A DNA stretch of 10,501 nucleotides, from the UHGV virus genome UHGV-0105382; one strand, written 5' to 3'. The translations under genes were made by a program, and so were the position numbers. Position 1 is the stretch's first letter. The number at the start of each line of letters is the position of its first letter. This DNA is from a virus. The notes beneath the pieces are model-generated. The model saw only the letters and a list, made by a program, of their open reading frames with translations, was not told the origin of the DNA and made no database searches. Shown piece after piece: positions 908-10,451 of this stretch.

Positions 908-1615
908 ATGGATTTGAATAAATTCGATGAGCCATTCAGCCCTGAAGATATCGAATGGCGAATACAGCAAAGCGGTAAAACACGCGATGGCAAAGTGTGG
1001 GCTATGGTGCTGGCTTATGTCACGAACCGGGCAATCATGAAACGCCTGGACGATGTTTGCGGCAAAGCAGGATGGCGCAATGAATACCGCGATATTCCCA
1101 ACAACGGCGGCGTTGAATGCGGCATATCAATCAGGATTGATTCCGAATGGGTAACCAAATGGGATGCTGCTGAAAACACGCAGGTAGAAGCCGTCAAAGG
1201 TGGTCGTTCCGGTGCAATGAAGCGCGCTGCCGTTCAGTGGGGAATCGGTCGGTATCTGTATAACCTTGAGGAAGGTTTCGCACAAACATCTCTCGATAAA
1301 AAGCAGGGGTGGCACAGGGCAAAACTGAAGGATGGAACAGGATTTTACTGGCTCCCTCCATCGCTGCCGGGCTGGGCAATGCCAGTATCAGATAACAAAC
1401 CATCACCAGAAAATACCAACCAGAAATCTCCATCGGTTGACTGCGAGCAAATCCTGAAAGACTTCAGCGATTATGCGTCAACAGAAACTGACAAGAAAAA
1501 ACTCATCGAGCGTTATCAGCGTGACTGGCAATTAATGGCTGGCAATGAGGATGCGCAGGCTAAATGCGTTCAGGTAATGAACATCAGAGTTAACGAGCTA
1601 AAACAGGCGGCATAA
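908..1615 (+). CDS. Rad52-like single-strand annealing protein (phage recombinase, Sak/Rad52 type)
   Basis: TGAGGTG RBS at 897-903. Translation carries a Rad52-type core (GWRNEY...GGVECGISIRIDSEW...KRAAVQWGIGRYLYN), comparable to the Rad52 KRSLRGFGNALGNCLY region. Stop is directly followed by the SSB start (TAAATG). Confidence 0.75.
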   Translation: MDLNKFDEPFSPEDIEWRIQQSGKTRDGKVWAMVLAYVTNRAIMKRLDDVCGKAGWRNEYRDIPNNGGVECGISIRIDSEWVTKWDAAENTQVEAVKGGRSGAMKRAAVQWGIGRYLYNLEEGFAQTSLDKKQGWHRAKLKDGTGFYWLPPSLPGWAMPVSDNKPSPENTNQKSPSVDCEQILKDFSDYASTETDKKKLIERYQRDWQLMAGNEDAQAKCVQVMNIRVNELKQAA

Positions 1616-2119
1616 ATGGCAAGCAGAGGCGTAAATAAGGTGATCATTATTGGTCGCCTTGGGCATGATCCAGAAATCAGATATTCACCATCAGGAACGG
1701 CATTTGCAAACCTTACAGTTGCTACGTCAGAACAGTGGCGTGATAAGCAAACTGGAGAGAAAAAGGAGCAGACGGAGTGGCACCGTGTGGTAATGAGCGG
1801 GAAACTGGCAGAAATTGCCAGCGAATATCTGCGAAAAGGCTCTGAGGTTTATCTTGAAGGCAAATTGCGGACAAGAAAATGGCAGGATCAAAGCGGACAG
1901 GATCGGTTCACTACCGAAATCATCGTGGGCGTTGGTGGAACTATGCAAATGATTGGTGGCAAGCAAGGAGGCAATGAACAGTCTTCACCTCAGCGAAATA
2001 ACGGTCAGCAACCTCAGCAGCAAGGGAATCACAGCGAACCACCTATGGATTTTGACGACGATATCCCCTTTGCACCAGTAACTCTCCCCTTCCCTCGTCA
2101 CGCTATTCACGCAATTTAA
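1616..2119 (+). CDS. ssb: Single-stranded DNA-binding protein (phage SSB) with a C-terminal extension past the DDDIPF tip
   Basis: N-terminal OB fold nearly as in E. coli SSB ([16 protein letters not shown]...TEWHRVV...), Gly/Gln-rich linker, conserved MDFDDDIPF motif, then 15 more residues ([15 protein letters not shown]) before the stop. Confidence 0.9.
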
Positions 2120-2127
2120 GGACTTAC

Positions 2128-2676
2128 ATGAATCACTTGATGGTTGACCTTGAAACAATGGGCAACGGGCCATACGCGCCAGTTATTTCTATTGGGGCGG
2201 TATTCTTTGACCCGAATACCGGAGAAACAGGAGAAGAGTTCTCGGTAAATATCTCGCTTGAGTCATCAATGCGATATCGGGCGCGTCCTGACGCTTCAAC
2301 GATTTTATGGTGGATGGAACAGAGTGAAGAAGCCAGAAAATCGCTAACCAGCAACACTCAGGAGCTTTCAACGGCTCTTTCATGGTTATCTGAATTCATC
2401 ATAAAGAACGCTAACCACAAATTCGTTCAGGTTTGGGGGAATGGAGCATCATTTGACTGCGTTATTCTCCGAAACAGTTATTCGCTGACAGGGCAGCCAG
2501 TTCCGTGGCAGTGGTGGAATGACCGCGACGTAAGAACAATCGTCGAGCTTGGAAAGGTAATAGGATTCGACCCTAAGCGAGATATGCCATTCAAAGGAAC
2601 TCGCCACAACGCGCTTGATGATGCCATCCACCAAGCCAAATACGTTTCAGCAATCTGGAAAAAATTAGCTCAATAA
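2128..2676 (+). CDS. DEDDh-family (DnaQ-like) 3'-5' exonuclease
   Basis: All three exonuclease motifs are visible: Exo I (MVDLETMG), Exo II (WGNGASFDCVIL) and Exo III (HNALDDAIHQ). AAGGA RBS sits just upstream of the ATG. Confidence 0.8.
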   Translation: MNHLMVDLETMGNGPYAPVISIGAVFFDPNTGETGEEFSVNISLESSMRYRARPDASTILWWMEQSEEARKSLTSNTQELSTALSWLSEFIIKNANHKFVQVWGNGASFDCVILRNSYSLTGQPVPWQWWNDRDVRTIVELGKVIGFDPKRDMPFKGTRHNALDDAIHQAKYVSAIWKKLAQ

Positions 2677-2692
2677 TCAACAGGAGAAAAAC

Positions 2693-2986
2693 ATGCCAGC
2701 GCCTCTGTATGGTGCGGATGACCCGCGCCGCTGTTCCGGCAAATCCGTATCGGAGGTGCTGGATAAATTCAGAAAAAACTACGACCTGATAATATCGCTA
2801 CCGAAGGAAACGAAAGAGGAAAAGGAATTTCGCCATTGTATATGGCTTGCAGAGAAAGAAGAACGCGAGCGAATTTACCAGACATCAATCCGACCATTCC
2901 GCAAAGCCGCATATACCCACTTCCCTGAAATTGACCCGCGTCTGCGTAATTACCGCTCACGCTATGGCGCTATCAGTAATGACTGA
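2693..2986 (+). CDS. Hypothetical protein (97 aa)
   Basis: AGGAG at 2683-2687, ATG at 2693. No recognisable motif. Basic and Glu-rich. Confidence 0.6.
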   Translation: MPAPLYGADDPRRCSGKSVSEVLDKFRKNYDLIISLPKETKEEKEFRHCIWLAEKEERERIYQTSIRPFRKAAYTHFPEIDPRLRNYRSRYGAISND

Positions 2987-2996
2987 GGAATTAACA

Positions 2997-3287
2997 ATGA
3001 AAACAATGAAGCTAAACATCGGCCTCGGCAAATACGTTATTACCGGAACCAAACACGACCTGATTCTTAGCGAAAGAGGAATTATCAAAGAAGGCGAGAA
3101 TGCAGGGAAAGAAACACTAAGCCGTATCGGTTATTACAGCAAGTTTGAGCATCTGGTTAAAGAGTTATGCAACCGTGAACTCCTGTTATCTCAGGCGCAG
3201 ACGCTACAGGATATTCAGCAGCATATCGAGACATTAGGTGTGTCACTTAGCATGGCTATTGACCAGTTCGTTGAGAGTAAATCATGA
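2997..3287 (+). CDS. Hypothetical protein (96 aa)
   Basis: GAGGA at 2985-2989, ATG at 2997 (MKTMKLNIG...). The track's longer ORF from 2847 overlaps the preceding gene in another frame and has no RBS, so the internal start is preferred. Confidence 0.6.
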
Positions 3288-3451
3288 GAGGACTTGCATA
3301 CAATCCCGGCATTCTTCCGGCAGAAATGATTATTCGCCAACGCGTAAAGCCAATGCCATCGAGAGAGGAATTGCTTAAGAGAAAGAGTTTCGGTTCTGTT
3401 AATGACAACAAATATCTGAATGCGATGTTGCGCAAAGGAGGCAACCAATGA
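3284..3451 (+). CDS. Hypothetical small basic protein (55 aa)
   Basis: Not in the supplied track (under 60 aa). ATGA overlaps at both ends (3284-3287 and 3448-3451) and it exactly fills the gap between neighbours. Translation [55 protein letters not shown]. Confidence 0.4.
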
Positions 3452-3801
3452 GCAAGATTGACTATCAGGCACTGCGTGAAAAGGCAGAGAAAGCAACGTG
3501 TGGTGTGTGGTCGCTCGAATATGGAGAGAGCCGATTTGATTGTGATGATGCGCTAATTCATCGTGACGTTGTTGGATATCTTCCCATTTGCAGAATTGAA
3601 GGAGCGCATCCTGAAAGCGGTTTCGATGAAGATTTCCAAATGGAACAGCAGGCCAATGCTGAATTCATCGCCGCAGCCAATCCGGCTACTGTGCTGGCAC
3701 TACTGGATGAAAACGAAAGACTGTGTCGCGAGCTGATAGCTCGTAATGGTGAGATTGAAGGGCTTCGGAAGTGGGCAGAAGAACGGGAGATGCAACCATG
3801 A
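3448..3801 (+). CDS. Ead/Ea22-like protein (117 aa)
   Basis: AGGAGG at 3436-3441. N-terminal module ([18 protein letters not shown] ... [24 protein letters not shown]) recurs in the next gene and matches my recollection of the Ead/Ea22-like family of lambdoid early-left regions. Confidence 0.65.
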
Positions 3802-4727
3802 TGACTTTTACCAGCGAACAATTAGCTACCTTACGTAAGATAGCGCAACAGGCAACACAGGGCGAATGGCGTGCATTCATCTCGCCGGACACTGGTACAT
3901 ATGCGGTGCATACGCCGGGGGATGAACGTTGCGGAGACATTATCAAATGGCCTGGCTTTGACGACCAGAAAAATGCAGAGAACAACGCAGAATTTATCGC
4001 AGCTTTCAACCCTAAATTAGTGCAGACACTGCTGGATGAACGGGAAAGAAACCAGCAATACATCAAATCACGCGACCAGGAGAACGAGGATATTGCGCTA
4101 ACGGTAGGGAAGCTGCGCGTTGAGCTTGAGGAGGTGAGAGCAAAACTCAATGAACAACGCGAGTATTACGAGGGAGTAATCGCGGATGGAAGGAAGCACA
4201 TAGCAGAACTGGAAAAACAATGCGCCGAATGGGAGCGAAAAGCATTAAGCAACTTTGAAGAGTGTGCTGCGATGGCTGAACGTATCGAAGAGATGCAGAC
4301 AAAATCTGCACCAGATTCGTTTGGCATCATCGGTGAAAATATTCGAACACAGGATAATCGAATAACGTCAGATCCTATGTTTTGTGTGTATCAAAAGCGC
4401 GAAATCGTTGTTGATGCTGATTATGACTATGACCGGATTGTCTGGGTTGATGAAGATGGCAATGAAGCCAATAAACTCCAAAGTCGTCGTCTCGAACTAC
4501 TTCATGAAAACTTTCGGGAGCCACCAGAAAAATGGCGGCGCGTTGCTGTGAAAGATATTGATGAATTCGTTACCTGCTGTTTCACCGAACAGGGTTGTAA
4601 AGACTACCTGGCAGCCAATGGTCACAATCTTCGCTTGCCATTTATATATGTAAAAAGCGGTTTCAGGAACGCTGAATATATCGGCATAAGAAACTGGCTT
4701 GCTGGTATTCGCATCAAAGGAGACTGA
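3798..4727 (+). CDS. Ead/Ea22-like protein, long form (309 aa) with coiled-coil middle and distinct Cys-containing C-terminal domain
   Basis: GGGAGA at 3785-3790, ATG at 3798 overlapping the previous stop (ATGATGA). N-terminal module (EQLATLRKIAQQATQGEW ... NNAEFIAAFNPKLVQTLLDERER) is paralogous to the preceding gene. The track's GTG start at 3771 is less likely. Confidence 0.7.
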   Translation: MMTFTSEQLATLRKIAQQATQGEWRAFISPDTGTYAVHTPGDERCGDIIKWPGFDDQKNAENNAEFIAAFNPKLVQTLLDERERNQQYIKSRDQENEDIALTVGKLRVELEEVRAKLNEQREYYEGVIADGRKHIAELEKQCAEWERKALSNFEECAAMAERIEEMQTKSAPDSFGIIGENIRTQDNRITSDPMFCVYQKREIVVDADYDYDRIVWVDEDGNEANKLQSRRLELLHENFREPPEKWRRVAVKDIDEFVTCCFTEQGCKDYLAANGHNLRLPFIYVKSGFRNAEYIGIRNWLAGIRIKGD

Positions 4728-4728
4728 T

Positions 4729-4938
4729 ATGGCTATTGCCGCAAGTTACACCATGCATCTCTATTGTGATTGTCGCCAGTGTACGGAAGGTGTATATCCA
4801 GTGCCAGACTTCGGTGAGTATATCGGTACGTCATGGTCTGGTTGTGCAAAAGAGGCCCGTAAAGACGGGTGGCGAATAAGCAAAGACAAAACACGTACTT
4901 TTGCGCCCGGGCATAAAGTTTTGAGGATTAACACATGA
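4729..4938 (+). CDS. Hypothetical Cys-rich small protein (69 aa, C-x-C-x2-C ... C; possible zinc ribbon)
   Basis: AAGGAGA at 4717-4723, ATG at 4729. Stop overlaps the next start (ATGA at 4935-4938). Motif HLYCDCRQC plus a later WSGC. Confidence 0.55.
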   Translation: MAIAASYTMHLYCDCRQCTEGVYPVPDFGEYIGTSWSGCAKEARKDGWRISKDKTRTFAPGHKVLRINT

Positions 4939-5708
4939 CCACTATTACCAAAGAACGTATTGAATTGTTCATTAAAAATCCGCTTGAAAACGGGCTTACT
5001 CGTGGCGAACAAATGGAACTGGCACGAATTGCACTGGCATCACTGGAACGCGAACTGATTCGCCACGAGCATGCCAAATGGTCTGACTCCACATTTGGCT
5101 GCGTTGGCCCCATTGGTCCACTGAAACACCTCTCAAAAGAGGCTCTGGAAGCCGCAGCCGAACCAGACGATCTCAGCGAGTGGGCTGATATGCATTTCCT
5201 GTTGTGGGATGCACAGCGCCGTGCTGGCATCAGCGATGCTGAAATTACCGCTGCTATGGAAGATAAATTGAAGATCAACATGGAGCGCCAGTGGCCTGAA
5301 CCAAAAGATGGTGAGCCTCGCTTGCACATTAAAGAACCCGGCAACTCTCCGGTAATTCCGGATGGTTTATCCACGGTATGCGCTGAGGCTTATCAGGTTG
5401 TAGGAGTTATGGCAGATGCGCTTGGTGTATTCGGTGATGCAGCAGTACAGAAAGTTCTGGATAACCTGTCACAGCAAAAACTTGTTCACAGAGATGTGCT
5501 GCCGTTCTCGCTTCCGGTAACTCCGGATGGTTGGATAAGCTGTAGTGATCGAATGCCGAACGACGCGCAGTGGTGCGTAGTGAACACAGAATACGGGTAT
5601 TACGTGCAATGCTGGTCTGAAGGTCAAGGGTGGCTTGGTGATGATATCAGCATCCCTAAATGCGATGTAATCAATTGGATGCCTCTACCAGAACCGCCGC
5701 AGGGGTGA
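4935..5708 (+). CDS. Two-domain prophage protein: N-terminal DUF550-type (dATP/dGTP pyrophosphohydrolase-like) domain and C-terminal DUF551 domain
   Basis: GAGGA at 4923-4927. The C-terminus (GWISCSDRMP...WCVV...DVINWMPLPEPPQG) matches the DUF551 signature as I recall it (W..[SC].DRLP ... W ... HWMPLPEPP). The N-terminal half (EWADMHFLLWDAQRRAGISDAEITAAMEDKLKINMERQWPEP) resembles the MazG-like pyrophosphohydrolase domain often fused to DUF551. Family names are from memory. Confidence 0.7.
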   Translation: MTTITKERIELFIKNPLENGLTRGEQMELARIALASLERELIRHEHAKWSDSTFGCVGPIGPLKHLSKEALEAAAEPDDLSEWADMHFLLWDAQRRAGISDAEITAAMEDKLKINMERQWPEPKDGEPRLHIKEPGNSPVIPDGLSTVCAEAYQVVGVMADALGVFGDAAVQKVLDNLSQQKLVHRDVLPFSLPVTPDGWISCSDRMPNDAQWCVVNTEYGYYVQCWSEGQGWLGDDISIPKCDVINWMPLPEPPQG

Positions 5709-5774
5709 AATGATGCTTGGCCTGAAGTATTTTATGTAATTGGTATTGCTATATTTTTATCTGGGGATAAACGA

Positions 5775-6017
5775 ATGTTCTCTCTGATTCAACGTGGTCA
5801 GATATACACCGATAGCGCTGGCTATCCAGTAAAAATCATTCGTAGTACTGATCACTCAGTATTCTTCAAGAGGATGGATGGCTATCCTGGAAGAGTGTGC
5901 ATCAGAAAATTCAATAATTTATTCGAACACATTGATCACAGAGAATATCACCAGATCCTGGCTGAAACAGAACAGGAGAACCATCTGAAAAAATTACGTG
6001 CTATGCAAAGGAGATAA
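5775..6017 (+). CDS. Hypothetical small protein (80 aa), possibly DUF4222-like
   Basis: GGGGA 7 nt upstream of the ATG. The pattern IQRGQIY.D..GYPVKII...DHSVFFKRMDGYPGRVCIRKF resembles small prophage proteins I recall under DUF4222; the family call is low confidence. Confidence 0.55.
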   Translation: MFSLIQRGQIYTDSAGYPVKIIRSTDHSVFFKRMDGYPGRVCIRKFNNLFEHIDHREYHQILAETEQENHLKKLRAMQRR

Positions 6018-6097
6018 ACCGGTAAAGGTGTTCGCGATAAAGGTGAATATCGGCAATGAATAACAATCCTCGAACTCGCGGGGATTTCTTTTATCTG

Positions 6098-6122
6098 AAC
6101 TCGCTACGGCGAGTTTTGTTTT
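6098..6122 (+). terminator. Putative intrinsic terminator (7-bp stem AACTCGC / GCGAGTT, loop TACG, then TTGTTTT)
   Basis: Seen in sequence: perfect 7-bp inverted repeat followed by a U-rich tract, about 80 nt after the 5775..6017 stop. Confidence 0.4.
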
Positions 6123-6135
6123 ATGGAGATGATAA

Positions 6136-6303
6136 ATGCACTTCCGAGTCACAGGTGAATGGAATGGAGAGCCATTCGACAGGGTTATCGAAGCAGAGGA
6201 CATCAACGACTGCTATAACCACTGGATGATATGGGCGCAGATAGCGCATGCAGACGTAACCAATATTCGAATTGAAGAACTGAAAGAACACCAAGCCGCC
6301 TGA
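6136..6303 (+). CDS. Hypothetical small protein (55 aa)
   Basis: Not in the supplied track (under 60 aa). GGAG at 6125-6128 seven nt before the ATG. Translation MHFRVTGEWNGEPFDRVIEAEDINDCYNHWMIWAQIAHADVTNIRIEELKEHQAA. Stop codon lies in the loop of the next terminator. Confidence 0.45.
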   Translation: MHFRVTGEWNGEPFDRVIEAEDINDCYNHWMIWAQIAHADVTNIRIEELKEHQAA

Positions 6304-6316
6304 TGGCGGTTTTTTC
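6293..6316 (+). terminator. Putative intrinsic terminator (stem GCCGCC / GGCGG(T), loop TGAT, then TTTTTT)
   Basis: Seen in sequence: GC-rich 5-6 bp stem followed by T6, directly upstream of the cII-box/xis region. Confidence 0.55.
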
Positions 6317-6352
6317 TTGCGTGTAATTGCGGAGACTTTGCGATGTACTTAA
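6317..6352 (+). promoter_or_regulatory. pI-like cII-dependent promoter (TTGC-N6-TTGC box overlapping the xis start)
   Basis: TTGC at 6317-6320 and 6327-6330 with a 6-nt spacer, the direct-repeat architecture of lambda cII sites. The surrounding sequence (TTGCGTGTAATTGCGGAGACTTTGCGATGTAC) matches what I recall of the lambda pI/xis region. Confidence 0.5.
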
Positions 6353-6561
6353 CACTTCAGGAGTGGAACGCACGCCAGCGGCGCCCAAGAAGCCTTGAAA
6401 CAGTTCGTCGATGGGTACGCGAGTGCAGGATATTCCCTCCTCCGGTTAAGGATGGAAGAGAGTATCTGTTCCACGAATCAGCGGTAAAGGTTGACTTAAA
6501 TCGACCAGTAACAGGTAGCCTTTTGAAGAGGATCAGAAATGGGAAGAAGGCGAAGTCATGA
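6343..6561 (+). CDS. xis: Excisionase Xis (lambda-type, 72 aa)
   Basis: Translation MYLTLQEWNARQRRPRSLETVRRWVRECRIFPPPVKDGREYLFHESAVKVDLNRPVTG... is essentially the lambda Xis sequence as I recall it. GGAG at 6331-6334. 3' end overlaps the int start as in lambda. Confidence 0.95.
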   Translation: MYLTLQEWNARQRRPRSLETVRRWVRECRIFPPPVKDGREYLFHESAVKVDLNRPVTGSLLKRIRNGKKAKS

Positions 6562-7612
6562 GCGCCGGGATTTACCTCCTAACCTTTATATAAGAAACAA
6601 TGGATATTACTGCTACAGGGACCCAAGGACGGGTAAAGAGTTTGGATTAGGCCGAGACAGGAGGATAGCAATCACTGAAGCTATACAGGCCAACATTGAG
6701 TTACTCTCAGACAGCGGACGCAAATCACTGATAGACAGAATTAAAGGCGGTGACGCAATCACTCTTCATGTGTGGCTTGACCGATATGAAAGAATCCTCA
6801 CCGAAAGGGGGATCAGGCCGAAAACTCTACTCGACTACGCCAGCAAAATCAGGGCAATCCGAAGAAAATTGCCGGACAAACCGCTCACTGACATATCAAC
6901 GAAAGAAGTGGCAGCAATGCTAAACACCTACGTAGCAGAAGGTAAAGCAGCTTCCGCAAAATTAATCAGGTCAACCCTTGTTGACGTTTTTCGTGAAGCA
7001 ATAGCCGAGGGGCATGTGGCAACGAATCCGGTAACAGCAACCCGTACAGCAAAGTCAGAAGTAAGGCGCTCAAGGCTGACAGCTAATGAGTATGTCGAGA
7101 TTTACCATGCAGCCGAACCTCTCCCTATCTGGCTAAGGCTGGCGATGGATTTGGCCGTCGTTACAGGGCAGAGAGTCGGCGATTTGTGCAGAATGAAATG
7201 GTCAGACATAAACGACAACCATCTTCACATTGAACAGAGTAAAACAGGGGCTAAACTCGCCATTCCGCTAATGCTAACGATTGACGCGCTCAATATCTCA
7301 TTGGCTGATACACTACAGAAATGCAGGGATGCCAGCAGCAGTGAAACTATAATCGCATCAAAGCATCACGATCCGCTTTCCCCGAAAACAGTATCAAAGT
7401 ATTTTACAAAGGCGAGAAATGCATCTGGACTCTCATTTGATGGAAACCCGCCAACATTCCATGAACTGCGTAGCCTGTCAGCGAGGCTATACCGGAACCA
7501 GATTGGCGATAAGTTTGCTCAACGTCTTCTCGGGCATAAATCAGATTCAATGGCGGCGCGGTATAGGGACAGCCGTGGACGGGAATGGGACAAAATTGAA
7601 ATCGACAAATGA
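6539..7612 (+). CDS. int: Tyrosine integrase, lambda Int family (357 aa)
   Basis: N-terminal arm-binding domain matches lambda Int (MGRRRSHERRDLPPNLYIRNNGYYCYRDPRTGKEFGLGRDRRIAITEAIQANIEL). Catalytic residues are placed as in lambda (VVTGQRVGDL, HELRSLSARLY, LLGHKSDSMAARYRD, C-terminus REWDKIEIDK). The central core-binding region differs from lambda. Confidence 0.95.
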   Translation: MGRRRSHERRDLPPNLYIRNNGYYCYRDPRTGKEFGLGRDRRIAITEAIQANIELLSDSGRKSLIDRIKGGDAITLHVWLDRYERILTERGIRPKTLLDYASKIRAIRRKLPDKPLTDISTKEVAAMLNTYVAEGKAASAKLIRSTLVDVFREAIAEGHVATNPVTATRTAKSEVRRSRLTANEYVEIYHAAEPLPIWLRLAMDLAVVTGQRVGDLCRMKWSDINDNHLHIEQSKTGAKLAIPLMLTIDALNISLADTLQKCRDASSSETIIASKHHDPLSPKTVSKYFTKARNASGLSFDGNPPTFHELRSLSARLYRNQIGDKFAQRLLGHKSDSMAARYRDSRGREWDKIEIDK

Positions 7613-7706
7613 TTTTATTTTGACTAATAATGACCTGCTTACATTAATTCATTGATAATAAAAGAGATTTCAAATATACAACTTATTCACCTTAAGTGCA
7701 CCGACC
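7613..7706. other. attL-like region: tandem arm-type Int sites, IHF consensus, then the phage/host junction (exact core not determinable)
   Basis: The reverse complement of 7613-7640 reads AGGTCATTATTAGTCAAAATAAAA, close to lambda P'-arm sites (GGTCACTATCAGTCAAAATAAAAT as I recall). The reverse complement of 7644-7656 is TATCAATGAATTA, matching the IHF consensus WATCAANNNNTTR at the position of lambda H'. Confidence 0.6.
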
Positions 7707-10451
7707 GTGAATTTAACCCTGACCCGAAGACTCTGGATGGGCTTTGCCCTGATGGCGCTGTTAACCCTGACCAGTACCCTGGTGGGATGGTACAACCTGC
7801 GCTTTATCAGCCAGGTGGAAAAAGACAACACTCAGGCATTGATTCCTACCATGAATATGGCGCGCCAGTTGAGCGAAGCCAGCGCCTGGGAACTTTTCGC
7901 CGCGCAGAACCTGACCAGTGCCGATAACGAAAAGATGTGGCAGGCGCAGGGGCGAATGCTCACCGCACAAAGCCTGAAGATTAATGCGTTGCTGCAAGCA
8001 TTACGGGAACAAGGTTTTGATACCACCGCTATTGAACATCAGGAGCAGGAGATCTCCCGTTCGTTACGTCAGCAAGGGGAACTGGTGGGACAGCGTTTGC
8101 AACTGCGCCAGCAACAACAGCGACTCAGTCAGCAGATAGTCGCCGCCGCCGATGAAATCGCACGCCTGGCGCAAGGTCAGGCGAATAATGCGGCAACTTC
8201 CGCCGGAGCGACCCAGGCCGGGATTTACGATTTGATCGAACAACATCAGCGTCAGGCCGCAGAAAGTGCACTCGATCGGCTGATTGATATCGATCTTGAG
8301 TATGTTAACCAGATGAATGAACTGCGCCTTAGCGCCCTGCGGGTGCAGCAAATGGTGATGAATCTGGGGTTGGAACAGATCCAGAAAAATGCGCCAACGC
8401 TGGAAAAGCAGCTCAATAATGCGGTGAAAATTCTGCAACGTCGGCAAATACGCATTGAAGATCCGGGAGTTCGTGCTCAGGTCGCAACAACGTTAACTTC
8501 CGTTAGCCAATATAGCGATTTGCTGGCGCTGTATCAGCAGGACAGTGAAATCAGCAATCGCCTGCAAACTCTCGCCCAAAATAACATCGCCCAGTTCGCG
8601 CAGTTTAGTAGCGAAGTCAGTCAGTTGGTCGACACCATTGAGCTGCGTAATCAGCACGGACTGGCGCATCTGGAAAAAGCCAGTGCACGCGGGCAATACA
8701 GCCTGTTATTGCTGGGGATGGTTTCACTTTGCGCACTGATTCTGATCCTCTGGCGCGTGGTTTATCGCTCAGTCACGCGTCCACTTGCCGAACAAACGCA
8801 GGCGCTGCAACGGCTGCTGGACGGTGATATCGACTCCCCTTTTCCGGAAACCGCTGGCGTGCGGGAGCTGGATACCATCGGGCGGCTGATGGATGCGTTT
8901 CGCAGCAGTGTTCATGCACTGAATCGCCACCGCGAACAGCTGGCGGCGCAGGTCAAAGCGCGTACAGCTGAATTGCAGGAGCTGGTGATAGAACACCGAC
9001 AGGCACGGGCGGAAGCAGAAAAAGCCAGCCAGGCAAAATCGGCGTTTCTGGCGGCGATGAGCCATGAGATCCGCACACCGCTGTACGGTATTCTTGGCAC
9101 CGCGCAACTGCTGGCAGATAACCCCGCACTTAATGCCCAGCGTGATGATTTGCGGGCAATTACCGACTCTGGTGAATCGTTGCTGACCATCCTCAACGAT
9201 ATTCTCGATTATTCGGCTATCGAAGCAGGCGGCAAGAATGTTTCGGTCAGCGATGAACCCTTTGAACCGCGCCCGCTGCTGGAAAGTACCCTGCAATTAA
9301 TGAGCGGAAGGGTGAAAGGTCGCCCGATTCGCCTGGCAACAGAAATTGCCGACGATGTACCGACTGCGTTAATGGGCGATCCGCGGCGTATTCGTCAGGT
9401 CATTACCAACCTGTTGAGCAACGCCCTGCGTTTTACTGACGAAGGACAGATCGTTTTACGTAGCCGCACTGATGGCGAGCAATGGCTGGTCGAAGTGGAA
9501 GACAGCGGCTGCGGTATTGATCCCGCGAAACTGGCTGAAATCTTCCAGCCATTTGTTCAGGTTAGCGGCAAACGCGGCGGCACCGGGCTGGGGCTGACCA
9601 TCAGTAGCCGTCTGGCCCAGGCGATGGGCGGCGAACTGAGCGCCACCAGCACGCCGGAAGTTGGAAGCTGTTTTTGTTTACGCTTGCCGTTACGTGTTGC
9701 CACTGCACCCGTGCCAAAAACAGTCAATCAGGCGGTGCATCTGGACGGTTTACGTTTGCTGTTAATTGAAGATAACCCGCTAACCCAGCGAATTACCGTT
9801 GAGATGCTGAACAACAGTGGGGCGCAGGTCGTTGCGGTAGGAAATGCCGCGCACGCAATAGAGACGTTGCAAAATAGCGAACCGTTTGCTGCCGCACTGG
9901 TGGATTTTGATCTGCCCGATATCGACGGCATTACGCTTGCCCGGCAACTGGCACAGCAATATCCGTCGCTGGTTTTGATTGGCTTTAGCGCTCATGTCAT
10001 CGACGAAACGTTGCGCCAGCGTACCAGTTCATTATTTCGCGGGATTATCCCTAAACCGGTGCCGCGTGAAGTGCTCGGTCAGTTACTGGCGCACTATCTC
10101 CAACTGCAAGTCAATAACGATCAACCGCTGGATGTATCGCAACTCAATGAAGATGCTCAGTTGATGGGGACGGAGAAGATCCACGAATGGCTGGCATTAT
10201 TTAAACAACATGCCCTGCCGCTTCTCGATGACATCGGCATCGCCCGCTCCAGCCAGAACAGCGAAAAAATAAAGCGTGCCGCACATCAGCTAAAAAGCAG
10301 TTGCTCGAGTCTGGGAATGCGTAGCGCCAGCCAGCTATGCGCACAACTGGAGCAGCAGCCATTATCTGCCCCCCTTCCACACGAAGAAATTACACGCAGT
10401 GTTGCCGCTCTGGAAGCATGGTTGAATAAGAAAGACCTGAACGCGATTTGA
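7707..10451 (+). CDS. torS: TMAO-responsive hybrid sensor histidine kinase TorS (914 aa from the GTG at 7707; 904 aa if started at the ATG at 7737)
   Basis: Translation matches E. coli TorS as I recall it ([22 protein letters not shown]...). Two transmembrane segments flank a periplasmic domain, followed by an H-box ([11 protein letters not shown], His codon 9063-9065), G-boxes (DSGCGI, GGTGLGL), a receiver domain (LLIEDNP; Asp codon 9903-9905 in [10 protein letters not shown]) and a C-terminal HPt (AAHQLKSS, His codon 10284-10286). Counting from the internal ATG these residues are His443, Asp723 and His850, the phosphorelay positions as I recall them for TorS. Confidence 0.95.

Follow-up and report, generated by a model that had tools for sequence, protein, structure and literature searches.

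The window analysed here is a stretch of 10,501 nucleotides (nt) from UHGV virus genome UHGV-0105382, and the subject of this report is an overlapping pair of genes within it that encode a small protein of 69 amino acids (aa) and a mosaic protein of 257 aa. The larger protein consists of an N-terminal head, a DUF550 (dATP/dGTP pyrophosphohydrolase) cassette, a middle cassette and a DUF551 tail (Table 1). It is best regarded as the orthologue of EaA from phage P22, because the two proteins align from end to end (BLASTP E = 4e-78) and the genes lie in the same synteny, the order in P22 being ead, eai, eaa, eag, eac, xis, int. P22 EaA, which is also found in BTP1 and in other Lederbergvirus and lambdoid phages, has in common with the window protein the head, the DUF550 segment (77% identity to P22 eaa by tblastn), the tail with DUF551 and a location between ead and xis-int. 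It differs, at 317 aa, by an additional segment that separates the head from DUF550 and by another middle cassette, and the eaI gene upstream of it is unrelated to the 69-aa open reading frame (ORF).

A preliminary description of this DNA, made from the sequence alone, had placed a MazG-like pyrophosphohydrolase at the N-terminus and a DUF551 domain at the C-terminus of the larger protein. Profile searches confirm both domains: PF04447 (dATP-dGTP_PPHyd, formerly DUF550) scores 141.3 bits against a cutoff of 23 (E = 1.2e-41, profile positions 1-96 of 97), and PF04448 (DUF551) scores 43.7 bits, above its gathering threshold of 22 (E = 5.1e-11, profile positions 1-68 of 68). The pyrophosphohydrolase domain was correctly recognised but does not form the N-terminus, as a head of 40 residues precedes it, and a separate cassette of 55 residues separates it from DUF551. 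The identical DNA in E. coli MS 198-1 is labelled "dATP/dGTP pyrophosphohydrolase domain-containing protein" in RefSeq, so the domain annotation already exists and the finding is in this respect mostly confirmatory. No NCBIfam profile matched the 69-aa or the 257-aa protein. Locus L014 encodes a 257-aa protein identical to that of the window.

The overlapping pair proposed in the same description is present, with the two ORFs sharing an ATGA start/stop overlap. Each ORF is preceded by a Shine-Dalgarno sequence, and the AAGGAG of the small ORF falls within the 3' end of the upstream Ea22-like gene, the stop codon of which is at 4725-4727. The phrog_926 match of the small ORF and the PF04447 and PF04448 matches of the large one show that both are real genes and not chance reading frames. 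The relatives of the pair were collected by fetching 80 IMG/VR loci with close relatives of the small protein, which are the closest 80 of 264 hits and of which 78 were usable. Translational coupling, which had also been suggested, is plausible because the -4 ATGA overlap is conserved in 77 of these 78 loci. In the PGAP annotation (CP146687; L002 5336-5455 and 5429-6109) the 257-codon ORF is split, the first 40 codons being called a partial hypothetical coding sequence and a DUF550 protein being started at the internal Met32. We rejected this split since the frame runs on without a break, a Shine-Dalgarno sequence precedes the upstream ATG, which also forms part of the conserved ATGA overlap, and a recognisable head is carried by P22 EaA and by more than 50 related proteins. 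The split is probably an annotation artefact of the mosaic head, and the mosaic structure of the gene would account for the splitting of such ORFs by automatic annotation.

The case for an intact enzyme comes from the comparison of the DUF550 cassette with MazZ of cyanophage S-2L. In a direct comparison with the Protein Data Bank the cassette gave a weak match to S-2L MazZ (7ODY, E = 0.3), and with a profile built from six DUF550 domains, MazZ being left out, 7ODY was the sole Protein Data Bank match (E = 1.4e-14, whole domain). The residues of MazZ that hold three catalytic metal ions and the nucleotide were taken from its published description (PMC8342488) and located in an alignment of seven sequences, namely the window protein, P22 EaA, Klebsiella phage NJS1 gp16, Mycobacterium phage Dusk gp109, a Pseudomonas phage protein, the Acinetobacter phage SH-Ab 15497 protein and MazZ itself. 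Residues E35, E38, E50, D53 and D60 of MazZ correspond to E69, E72, E82, D85 and D92 of the window protein, and K76, N80, R83 and W85 correspond to K111, N115, R118 and W120; all of these are invariant in the alignment. The acidic motifs E-x2-E and E-x2-D are present in the cassette together with the Lys, Asn, Arg and Trp contacts to the nucleotide and phosphates, so the conserved catalytic acidic residues on which the earlier proposal depended are in place. Because the metal- and nucleotide-binding residues of MazZ are all invariant, pyrophosphohydrolase activity of the DUF550 cassette is likely, and by these comparisons the cassette is assigned to the all-alpha nucleoside triphosphate (NTP) pyrophosphohydrolase (MazG/MazZ-like) superfamily. 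In MazZ several residues of the site are contributed by the second chain of a tight dimer (PMC8342488), so the window protein should act as a dimer or higher oligomer with an active site that extends across the subunit interface.

Table 1. Features of the gene pair and of its surroundings, with positions in the window
Feature	Position	Strand	Remarks
Shine-Dalgarno AAGGAG of small ORF	4717..4722	+	6 nt 5' of ATG, read from sequence
Small ORF, 69 aa	4729..4938	+	phrog_926 member; ATG 4729, TGA 4936-4938
Shine-Dalgarno GAGGA of EaA-type ORF	4923..4927	+	7 nt 5' of ATG, read from sequence
ATGA start/stop overlap, small ORF / EaA-type ORF	4935..4938	+	4 nt
EaA-type mosaic ORF, 257 aa	4935..5708	+	P22 EaA orthologue by alignment and synteny; ATG 4935, TGA 5706-5708
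Constant N-terminal head, residues 1-40	4935..5054	+	MTTITKERIELF...ELARIALASLE; precedes many different cassettes
DUF550 / dATP-dGTP pyrophosphohydrolase cassette (PF04447), residues 42-137	5058..5345	+	
Junction repeat copy 1, TCCGGTAATTCCGGATGGTT	5348..5367	+	encodes SPVIPDG
Middle cassette, residues 139-195	5349..5519	+	matches phrog_28884; between two junction repeats
Junction repeat copy 2, TCCGGTAACTCCGGATGGTT	5513..5532	+	encodes PVTPDGW
DUF551 tail (PF04448), residues 199-256	5529..5702	+	predicted small all-beta barrel
Rad52/Erf-like recombinase	908-1615	+	
SSB	1616-2119	+	
3'-5' exonuclease	2128-2676	+	
Abc2 anti-RecBCD	2693-2986	+	
DUF5405 protein	2997-3287	+	
Ead/Ea22-like ORF, first	3448-3801	+	117 aa
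Ead/Ea22-like ORF, second	3771-4727	+	318 aa
DUF4222 protein	5775-6017	+	
phrog_676 protein	6136-6303	+	
TorI-type excisionase	6343-6561	+	
Integrase	6539-7612	+	
Host gene torS, sensor kinase	from 7707 (7707-10451)	+	

S-2L MazZ is homologous to the DUF550 cassette and has in common with it the metal-binding, phosphate-binding and guanine N2-contact residues, but the pairwise identity is only ~28%, and MazZ is a stand-alone protein of 105 aa whereas the window domain is one cassette in a mosaic. MazZ is specific for (d)GTP and is encoded next to datZ and to purZ, the gene for a homologue of adenylosuccinate synthetase, where it provides dGMP for the synthesis of 2-aminoadenine (PMC8342488); the window lacks these neighbours. 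The DUF5664-DUF550 protein of Acinetobacter phage SH-Ab 15497, from which the name of PF04447 derives, belongs to the same family and was reported to be active on dATP and dGTP (PMC12884076). It keeps the catalytic residues, but it has ~26-34% identity to the window protein over the domain, is fused to DUF5664 and lies in a Z-genome cluster. The placement next to purZ and datZ, in which the MazZ/DUF550 enzyme supplies dGMP, is described for Z-genome phages (PMC8342488, PMC12884076), and in both S-2L and SH-Ab 15497 these two genes are adjacent to the DUF550/MazZ gene. The neighbours of the pair studied here are recombination genes, Ea22-like genes and the genes for DUF4222, xis and int. Since nothing like purZ or datZ was found within the 10.5-kb window or in the P22 ea region, the genomic context rules out the known physiological role in Z-genome synthesis.

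The DUF550 cassette is nevertheless widespread outside such phages. It is present in 511 of 5,426 complete E. coli genomes (at least 90% nucleotide identity) and is matched by 510 phage records, which include P22, BTP1, Stx-converting phages and several hundred Klebsiella phages, the virulent Webervirus NJS1 among them. To our knowledge, the characterisation of DUF550 as an enzyme is confined to phages in which 2-aminoadenine takes the place of adenine, and we know of no Z-DNA synthesis by P22, Stx-converting phages or the virulent Klebsiella phages that carry the cassette. The role of an intact cassette outside Z-genome phages bears on the control of nucleotide pools and possibly on counter-defence. 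In Pseudomonas phage AUS531phi (L091 412-1379) the gene for a DUF550 protein is directly followed by one for a protein annotated as DUF4406 / 'TIR2 superfamily', and this neighbourhood may have a bearing on a part played in nucleotide signalling or counter-defence.

The gene that carries the cassette is itself highly variable. Among the 78 loci the downstream gene begins at the same ATGA, with MTT or MIT as the first residues, in 77, and the length of its product ranges from 59 to 538 residues. DUF550 was found in 18 of these 78 proteins, the DUF551 tail in 38 and a recognisable head, of which there are several variants, in 54, while 14 have no detectable segment in common with the window protein. 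A Pfam scan of nine other cassette combinations from the mosaic family gave no match except DUF551. The modules join at the recurrent motifs ARIALASLEAEP and (N)SPV(T/I)PDGW, the second of which is encoded in the window by a 20-nt direct repeat, TCCGGTAAYTCCGGATGGTT. The two copies of this repeat are identical at 19 of 20 nt and bracket the middle cassette of 165 nt; the pattern is expected to match ~0.01 times by chance and was observed twice, and each copy holds an inverted repeat, TCCGG...CCGGA. In 51 of 87 related loci the boundaries between modules again show the exact 17-mer of the junction, and near-identical proteins in loci L009 and L010 lack exactly the middle cassette. The 20-nt repeat looks like a recombination junction for the shuffling of cassettes within the gene. 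By these comparisons the EaA gene is a scaffold that starts with a head, continues with variable cassettes and usually ends in a DUF551 tail, DUF550 being one optional cassette, and it offers a clear example of domain-level shuffling inside a phage gene with conserved junction sequences.

The DUF551 tail recurs beyond the EaA-type proteins. An AlphaFold2 (AF2) model of residues 186-257, based on an alignment of 44 sequences, is all-beta with four to five strands and has a predicted local distance difference test (pLDDT) score of 73.7, from which DUF551 is predicted with moderate confidence to be a small SH3/Tudor/Sm-like beta-barrel. The identical module is found on Ead/Ea22-like proteins, and fusion of DUF551 to Ead/Ea22 domains has been described (PMC10834534). 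Because many unrelated cassettes, and Ea22-like proteins as well, are joined to DUF551, this domain is most likely a shared binding or targeting module. Ea22 of lambda and the Stx phages, the proteins of the exo-xis region and YfdS of the cryptic prophage CPS-53 lie in the same neighbourhood and have the same mosaic logic, and the V2 variant of Ea22 as well as YfdS carry DUF551 like the window protein (PMC10834534, PMC4776307). The Ea22 proteins differ in that an Ead_Ea22 coiled coil forms their N-terminus where EaA has its head, and in that they lack a pyrophosphohydrolase domain.

The constant ends and exchangeable interior of these proteins allow a bolder proposal, which we consider improbable as it stands. 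EaA-type genes would be a platform for cassette shuffling, in which the constant head and the SH3-like DUF551 tail deliver effector cassettes to a common host target, recombination at the junctions exchanges the cassettes, the small protein serves as a cofactor of the scaffold and DUF550 is a targeted counter-defence enzyme. If this were so, DUF550 would so far stand alone as a recognisable cassette, fresh combinations would be made through the conserved, partly palindromic junction of ~20 nt, and DUF550 would act at a specific site, for example by destroying (p)ppGpp or antiviral analogues of nucleotides there, instead of acting on bulk pools.

The protein encoded by the small ORF is a member of phrog_926 (E = 3.6e-36, residues 1-68 on profile positions 1-68 of 69). 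A profile search gave 328 representative relatives (50% clustering), nearly all of which are stand-alone proteins of 55-100 residues, and by tblastn the protein was matched in 433 phage records; a word-indexed search with it returned enterobacterial relatives only. The preliminary description had called it a putative zinc ribbon, a fold defined by two CxxC-type knuckles on beta-hairpins, but the protein is not predicted to have this fold. The cysteines of the window protein are C13, C15, C18 and C39. Over 131 representatives of the family, C13 is conserved in 98%, position 18 is Cys in 79% and His in 4%, and position 62 is His or Cys in 97%, while C15 is kept in ~50% and C39 in 59%; position 57 is Cys in ~50% and is Thr in the window protein. 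From this conservation, C13, C15, C18 and H62 could plausibly form a Cys3-His metal site. The AF2 model of the small protein has a pLDDT of 80.6, and no solved structural analogue of the model was found. The lack of an assigned role that had been noted for the small protein and for DUF551 is borne out. A Protein Data Bank match of the small protein to the fibronectin type II repeats of MMP-9 was discarded as spurious because it covers the KDGW segment only, and a 697-aa match in the representative search (P0221) is the same KDGW artefact. P22 EaI was also considered as a homologue and was rejected, there being no alignment at E <= 100.

Homologues of the small gene occur in several phages with no EaA partner. 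In the virulent Ackermannviridae phage KpS110 the small gene is the last in a unit, after the genes for a dCMP deaminase and a membrane protein; in Rogunavirus AKS96 it is followed by a terminator; and in Pantoea prophages it lies in the nin region beside an unrelated small gene. A dedicated two-gene system was rejected on the grounds that DUF550 is found in only 18 of the 78 partners, that the small gene is solitary in virulent phages and that P22 has the unrelated eaI in its place. The small gene belongs to a separate and widespread phage family and is not tied to the pyrophosphohydrolase function. The gene was also found at 177 places on E. coli plasmids (query 4729-4934), and the region of the small gene and the EaA gene is carried by plasmids of 86-97 kb. 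These are probably phage-plasmids, so that the module would also circulate on extrachromosomal prophages.

Taken together, we regard it as moderately probable that the 257-aa protein is an early EaA-family accessory protein that carries a MazZ-type pyrophosphohydrolase cassette and is encoded next to a separate, translationally coupled small gene. The gene is an accessory gene of the early-left (pL) operon built from four modular parts. Its DUF550 cassette would be a catalytically intact all-alpha enzyme of the MazG/MazZ type, by homology at least a dimer, in which E69, E72, E82 and D85 hold divalent metal ions and a purine (d)NTP is cleaved to the monophosphate and pyrophosphate during early lytic development. 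Candidate natural substrates are dGTP and dATP, GTP, (p)ppGpp and a damaged or modified NTP. The DUF551 tail would serve as a binding or targeting module, and the upstream protein, linked to EaA-type genes by synteny and the ATGA coupling, would bind a metal ion. Of this account, the sequence analysis establishes how the genes are built, which domains match, that the catalytic residues are conserved, the mosaicism and the distribution, while enzyme activity, oligomeric state, the time of expression, the role of DUF551 and metal binding by the small protein are inferred from it.

Several points weigh against this explanation. In the SH-Ab 15497 protein a further domain, DUF5664, is itself active as a pyrophosphohydrolase (PMC12884076), so the expectation that DUF550 is active alone rests on the more distant MazZ. 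A search of the literature for a function of EaA or DUF550 in lambdoid phages returned nothing experimental. The base specificity cannot be deduced from the sequence, since D92 is kept both in MazZ, which acts on dGTP only, and in the dATP/dGTP enzyme of SH-Ab 15497. The 78 loci used to describe the arrangement are related samples and not independent ones, because they are the closest relatives and are at least 94% identical in the small gene. Finally, in a prophage of Kosakonia radicincitans (CP065411; L092 3001-4175) a small gene with 62% identity overlaps by 4 nt an EaA-type gene whose 328-aa product has a DUF551 tail. This pair lies in the nin region of the early-right operon, downstream of the gene for the replicative helicase and upstream of ninE; the two genes seem to have moved as a block. 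The recurrence of the overlap in a different operon suggests, if faintly, that the small protein and the scaffold are connected in function.

The Kosakonia pair, which keeps the 4-nt overlap and the DUF551 tail in spite of its early-right site, is a reason to consider a functional two-protein unit, in which the small protein would be a dedicated regulator, inhibitor or chaperone acting through the head or the DUF551 tail and the ATGA overlap would set the stoichiometry. The conservation of the overlap and of the MTT start in 77 of the 78 loci fits such a unit, and in Klebsiella phage VLCpiS13d the gene downstream of the small gene has weak EaA-type similarity. We nonetheless find a unit of this kind quite improbable: P22 EaA has the same head and is preceded by the unrelated eaI, the homologues in Ackermannviridae, Rogunavirus and the Pantoea prophages have no EaA or DUF551 neighbour, and among the 78 partners 40 lack DUF551 and 24 lack a recognisable head.

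The preferred explanation of an early EaA-family enzyme is compatible with different uses of nucleotide cleavage, which the surroundings of the gene help to weigh. The window carries the early-left (pL-type) operon of a P22/lambda-like prophage, and the pair sits deep within this operon, whose co-directional genes are tightly packed or overlap. On the + strand, a scan from 2600 to 7600 revealed no sigma-70-like promoter. Expression is therefore expected early after induction or infection and not in the lysogen; for lambda's exo-xis region, early expression is documented (PMC8614690).

The expected timing argues against superinfection exclusion, which the preliminary description had put forward. 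For this, constitutive expression in the lysogen would have to disturb the pools of deoxynucleoside triphosphates (dNTPs) and so keep incoming phages from growing. Some defences are known to work by depleting dNTPs, and a prophage carries the gene, but the gene lies deep in the early-left operon with no promoter-like site on the + strand (2600-7600), the same cassette is present in virulent Webervirus phages of Klebsiella, and the PADLOC defence models gave no match to either protein. We therefore judge superinfection exclusion to be very unlikely.

A role in lytic growth could instead be directed at host immunity. Hydrolysis of the alarmone (p)ppGpp would block the stringent-response-dependent activation of toxins or TIR-driven abortive infection while the phage replicates. 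The precedent is Atd1, a phage MazG-like pyrophosphatase that depletes (p)ppGpp and gives protection from the toxicity of TIR-STING and retron-TIR (bioRxiv 10.1101/2022.06.09.495361); E. coli MazG hydrolyses (p)ppGpp as well. In the window protein the contact of MazZ to the guanine N2 amino group is kept as D92, and the gene lies in an early accessory region along with the anti-RecBCD gene abc2. Like the cassette, Atd1 and E. coli MazG are members of the all-alpha superfamily with its metal-dependent chemistry, but they are of a different Pfam family. The substrate of Atd1 is (p)ppGpp, whereas the characterised DUF550 relatives act on (d)GTP and dATP (PMC8342488, PMC12884076). Hydrolysis of the alarmone is thus an unlikely function, if one with a precedent in counter-defence.

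Cleavage of nucleotides might also serve house-cleaning, in which the removal of damaged or chain-terminating purine nucleotides (8-oxo-dGTP, 2-oxo-dATP or antiviral ddh-nucleotides) would protect phage DNA that is replicated after SOS or oxidative induction from mutation or termination. The enzymes of the MazG family count as classic house-cleaning NTP pyrophosphohydrolases (PMC10014863). Oxidative stress and DNA damage induce lambdoid prophages. Tolerance of H2O2 has been associated with YfdS, a DUF551 protein (PMC4776307, PMC10834534). The argument is nevertheless one of analogy, and the link to oxidative stress concerns YfdS, a different protein that has no DUF550, so we hold this role to be rather unlikely. 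Sequence data do not separate (p)ppGpp hydrolysis, house-cleaning and a role of the small protein as a cofactor of the scaffold.

The combination of modules in the window is rare. At a coverage of at least 80%, the whole arrangement (3400-7750) was found in none of the 5,426 complete E. coli genomes, nearly all of which match parts of it, and at least 80% of the region 4600-5850 is covered in only 6 of them. Upstream of the pair, the two consecutive Ead/Ea22-like ORFs overlap by 31 nt, and the first is called a truncated pseudogene by PGAP in MS 198-1; the arrangement resembles the scar of a recombination event or an incomplete duplication of Ea22's N-terminal module. Downstream, the + strand contains three terminator-like hairpins with T-runs (6065-6116 and 6293-6312), two of them in tandem between the DUF4222 and phrog_676 genes and one just 3' of phrog_676 before xis, which may be elements of early-left-operon attenuation or sib-like elements. 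No tRNA gene was found at the prophage junction. The prophage ends with the TorI-type excisionase and the integrase directly upstream of the host gene torS, and in MS 198-1 the counterpart of the excisionase is named 'response regulator inhibitor TorI' in RefSeq. It is curious that a phage with a TorI-type protein adjoins the Tor regulatory locus.

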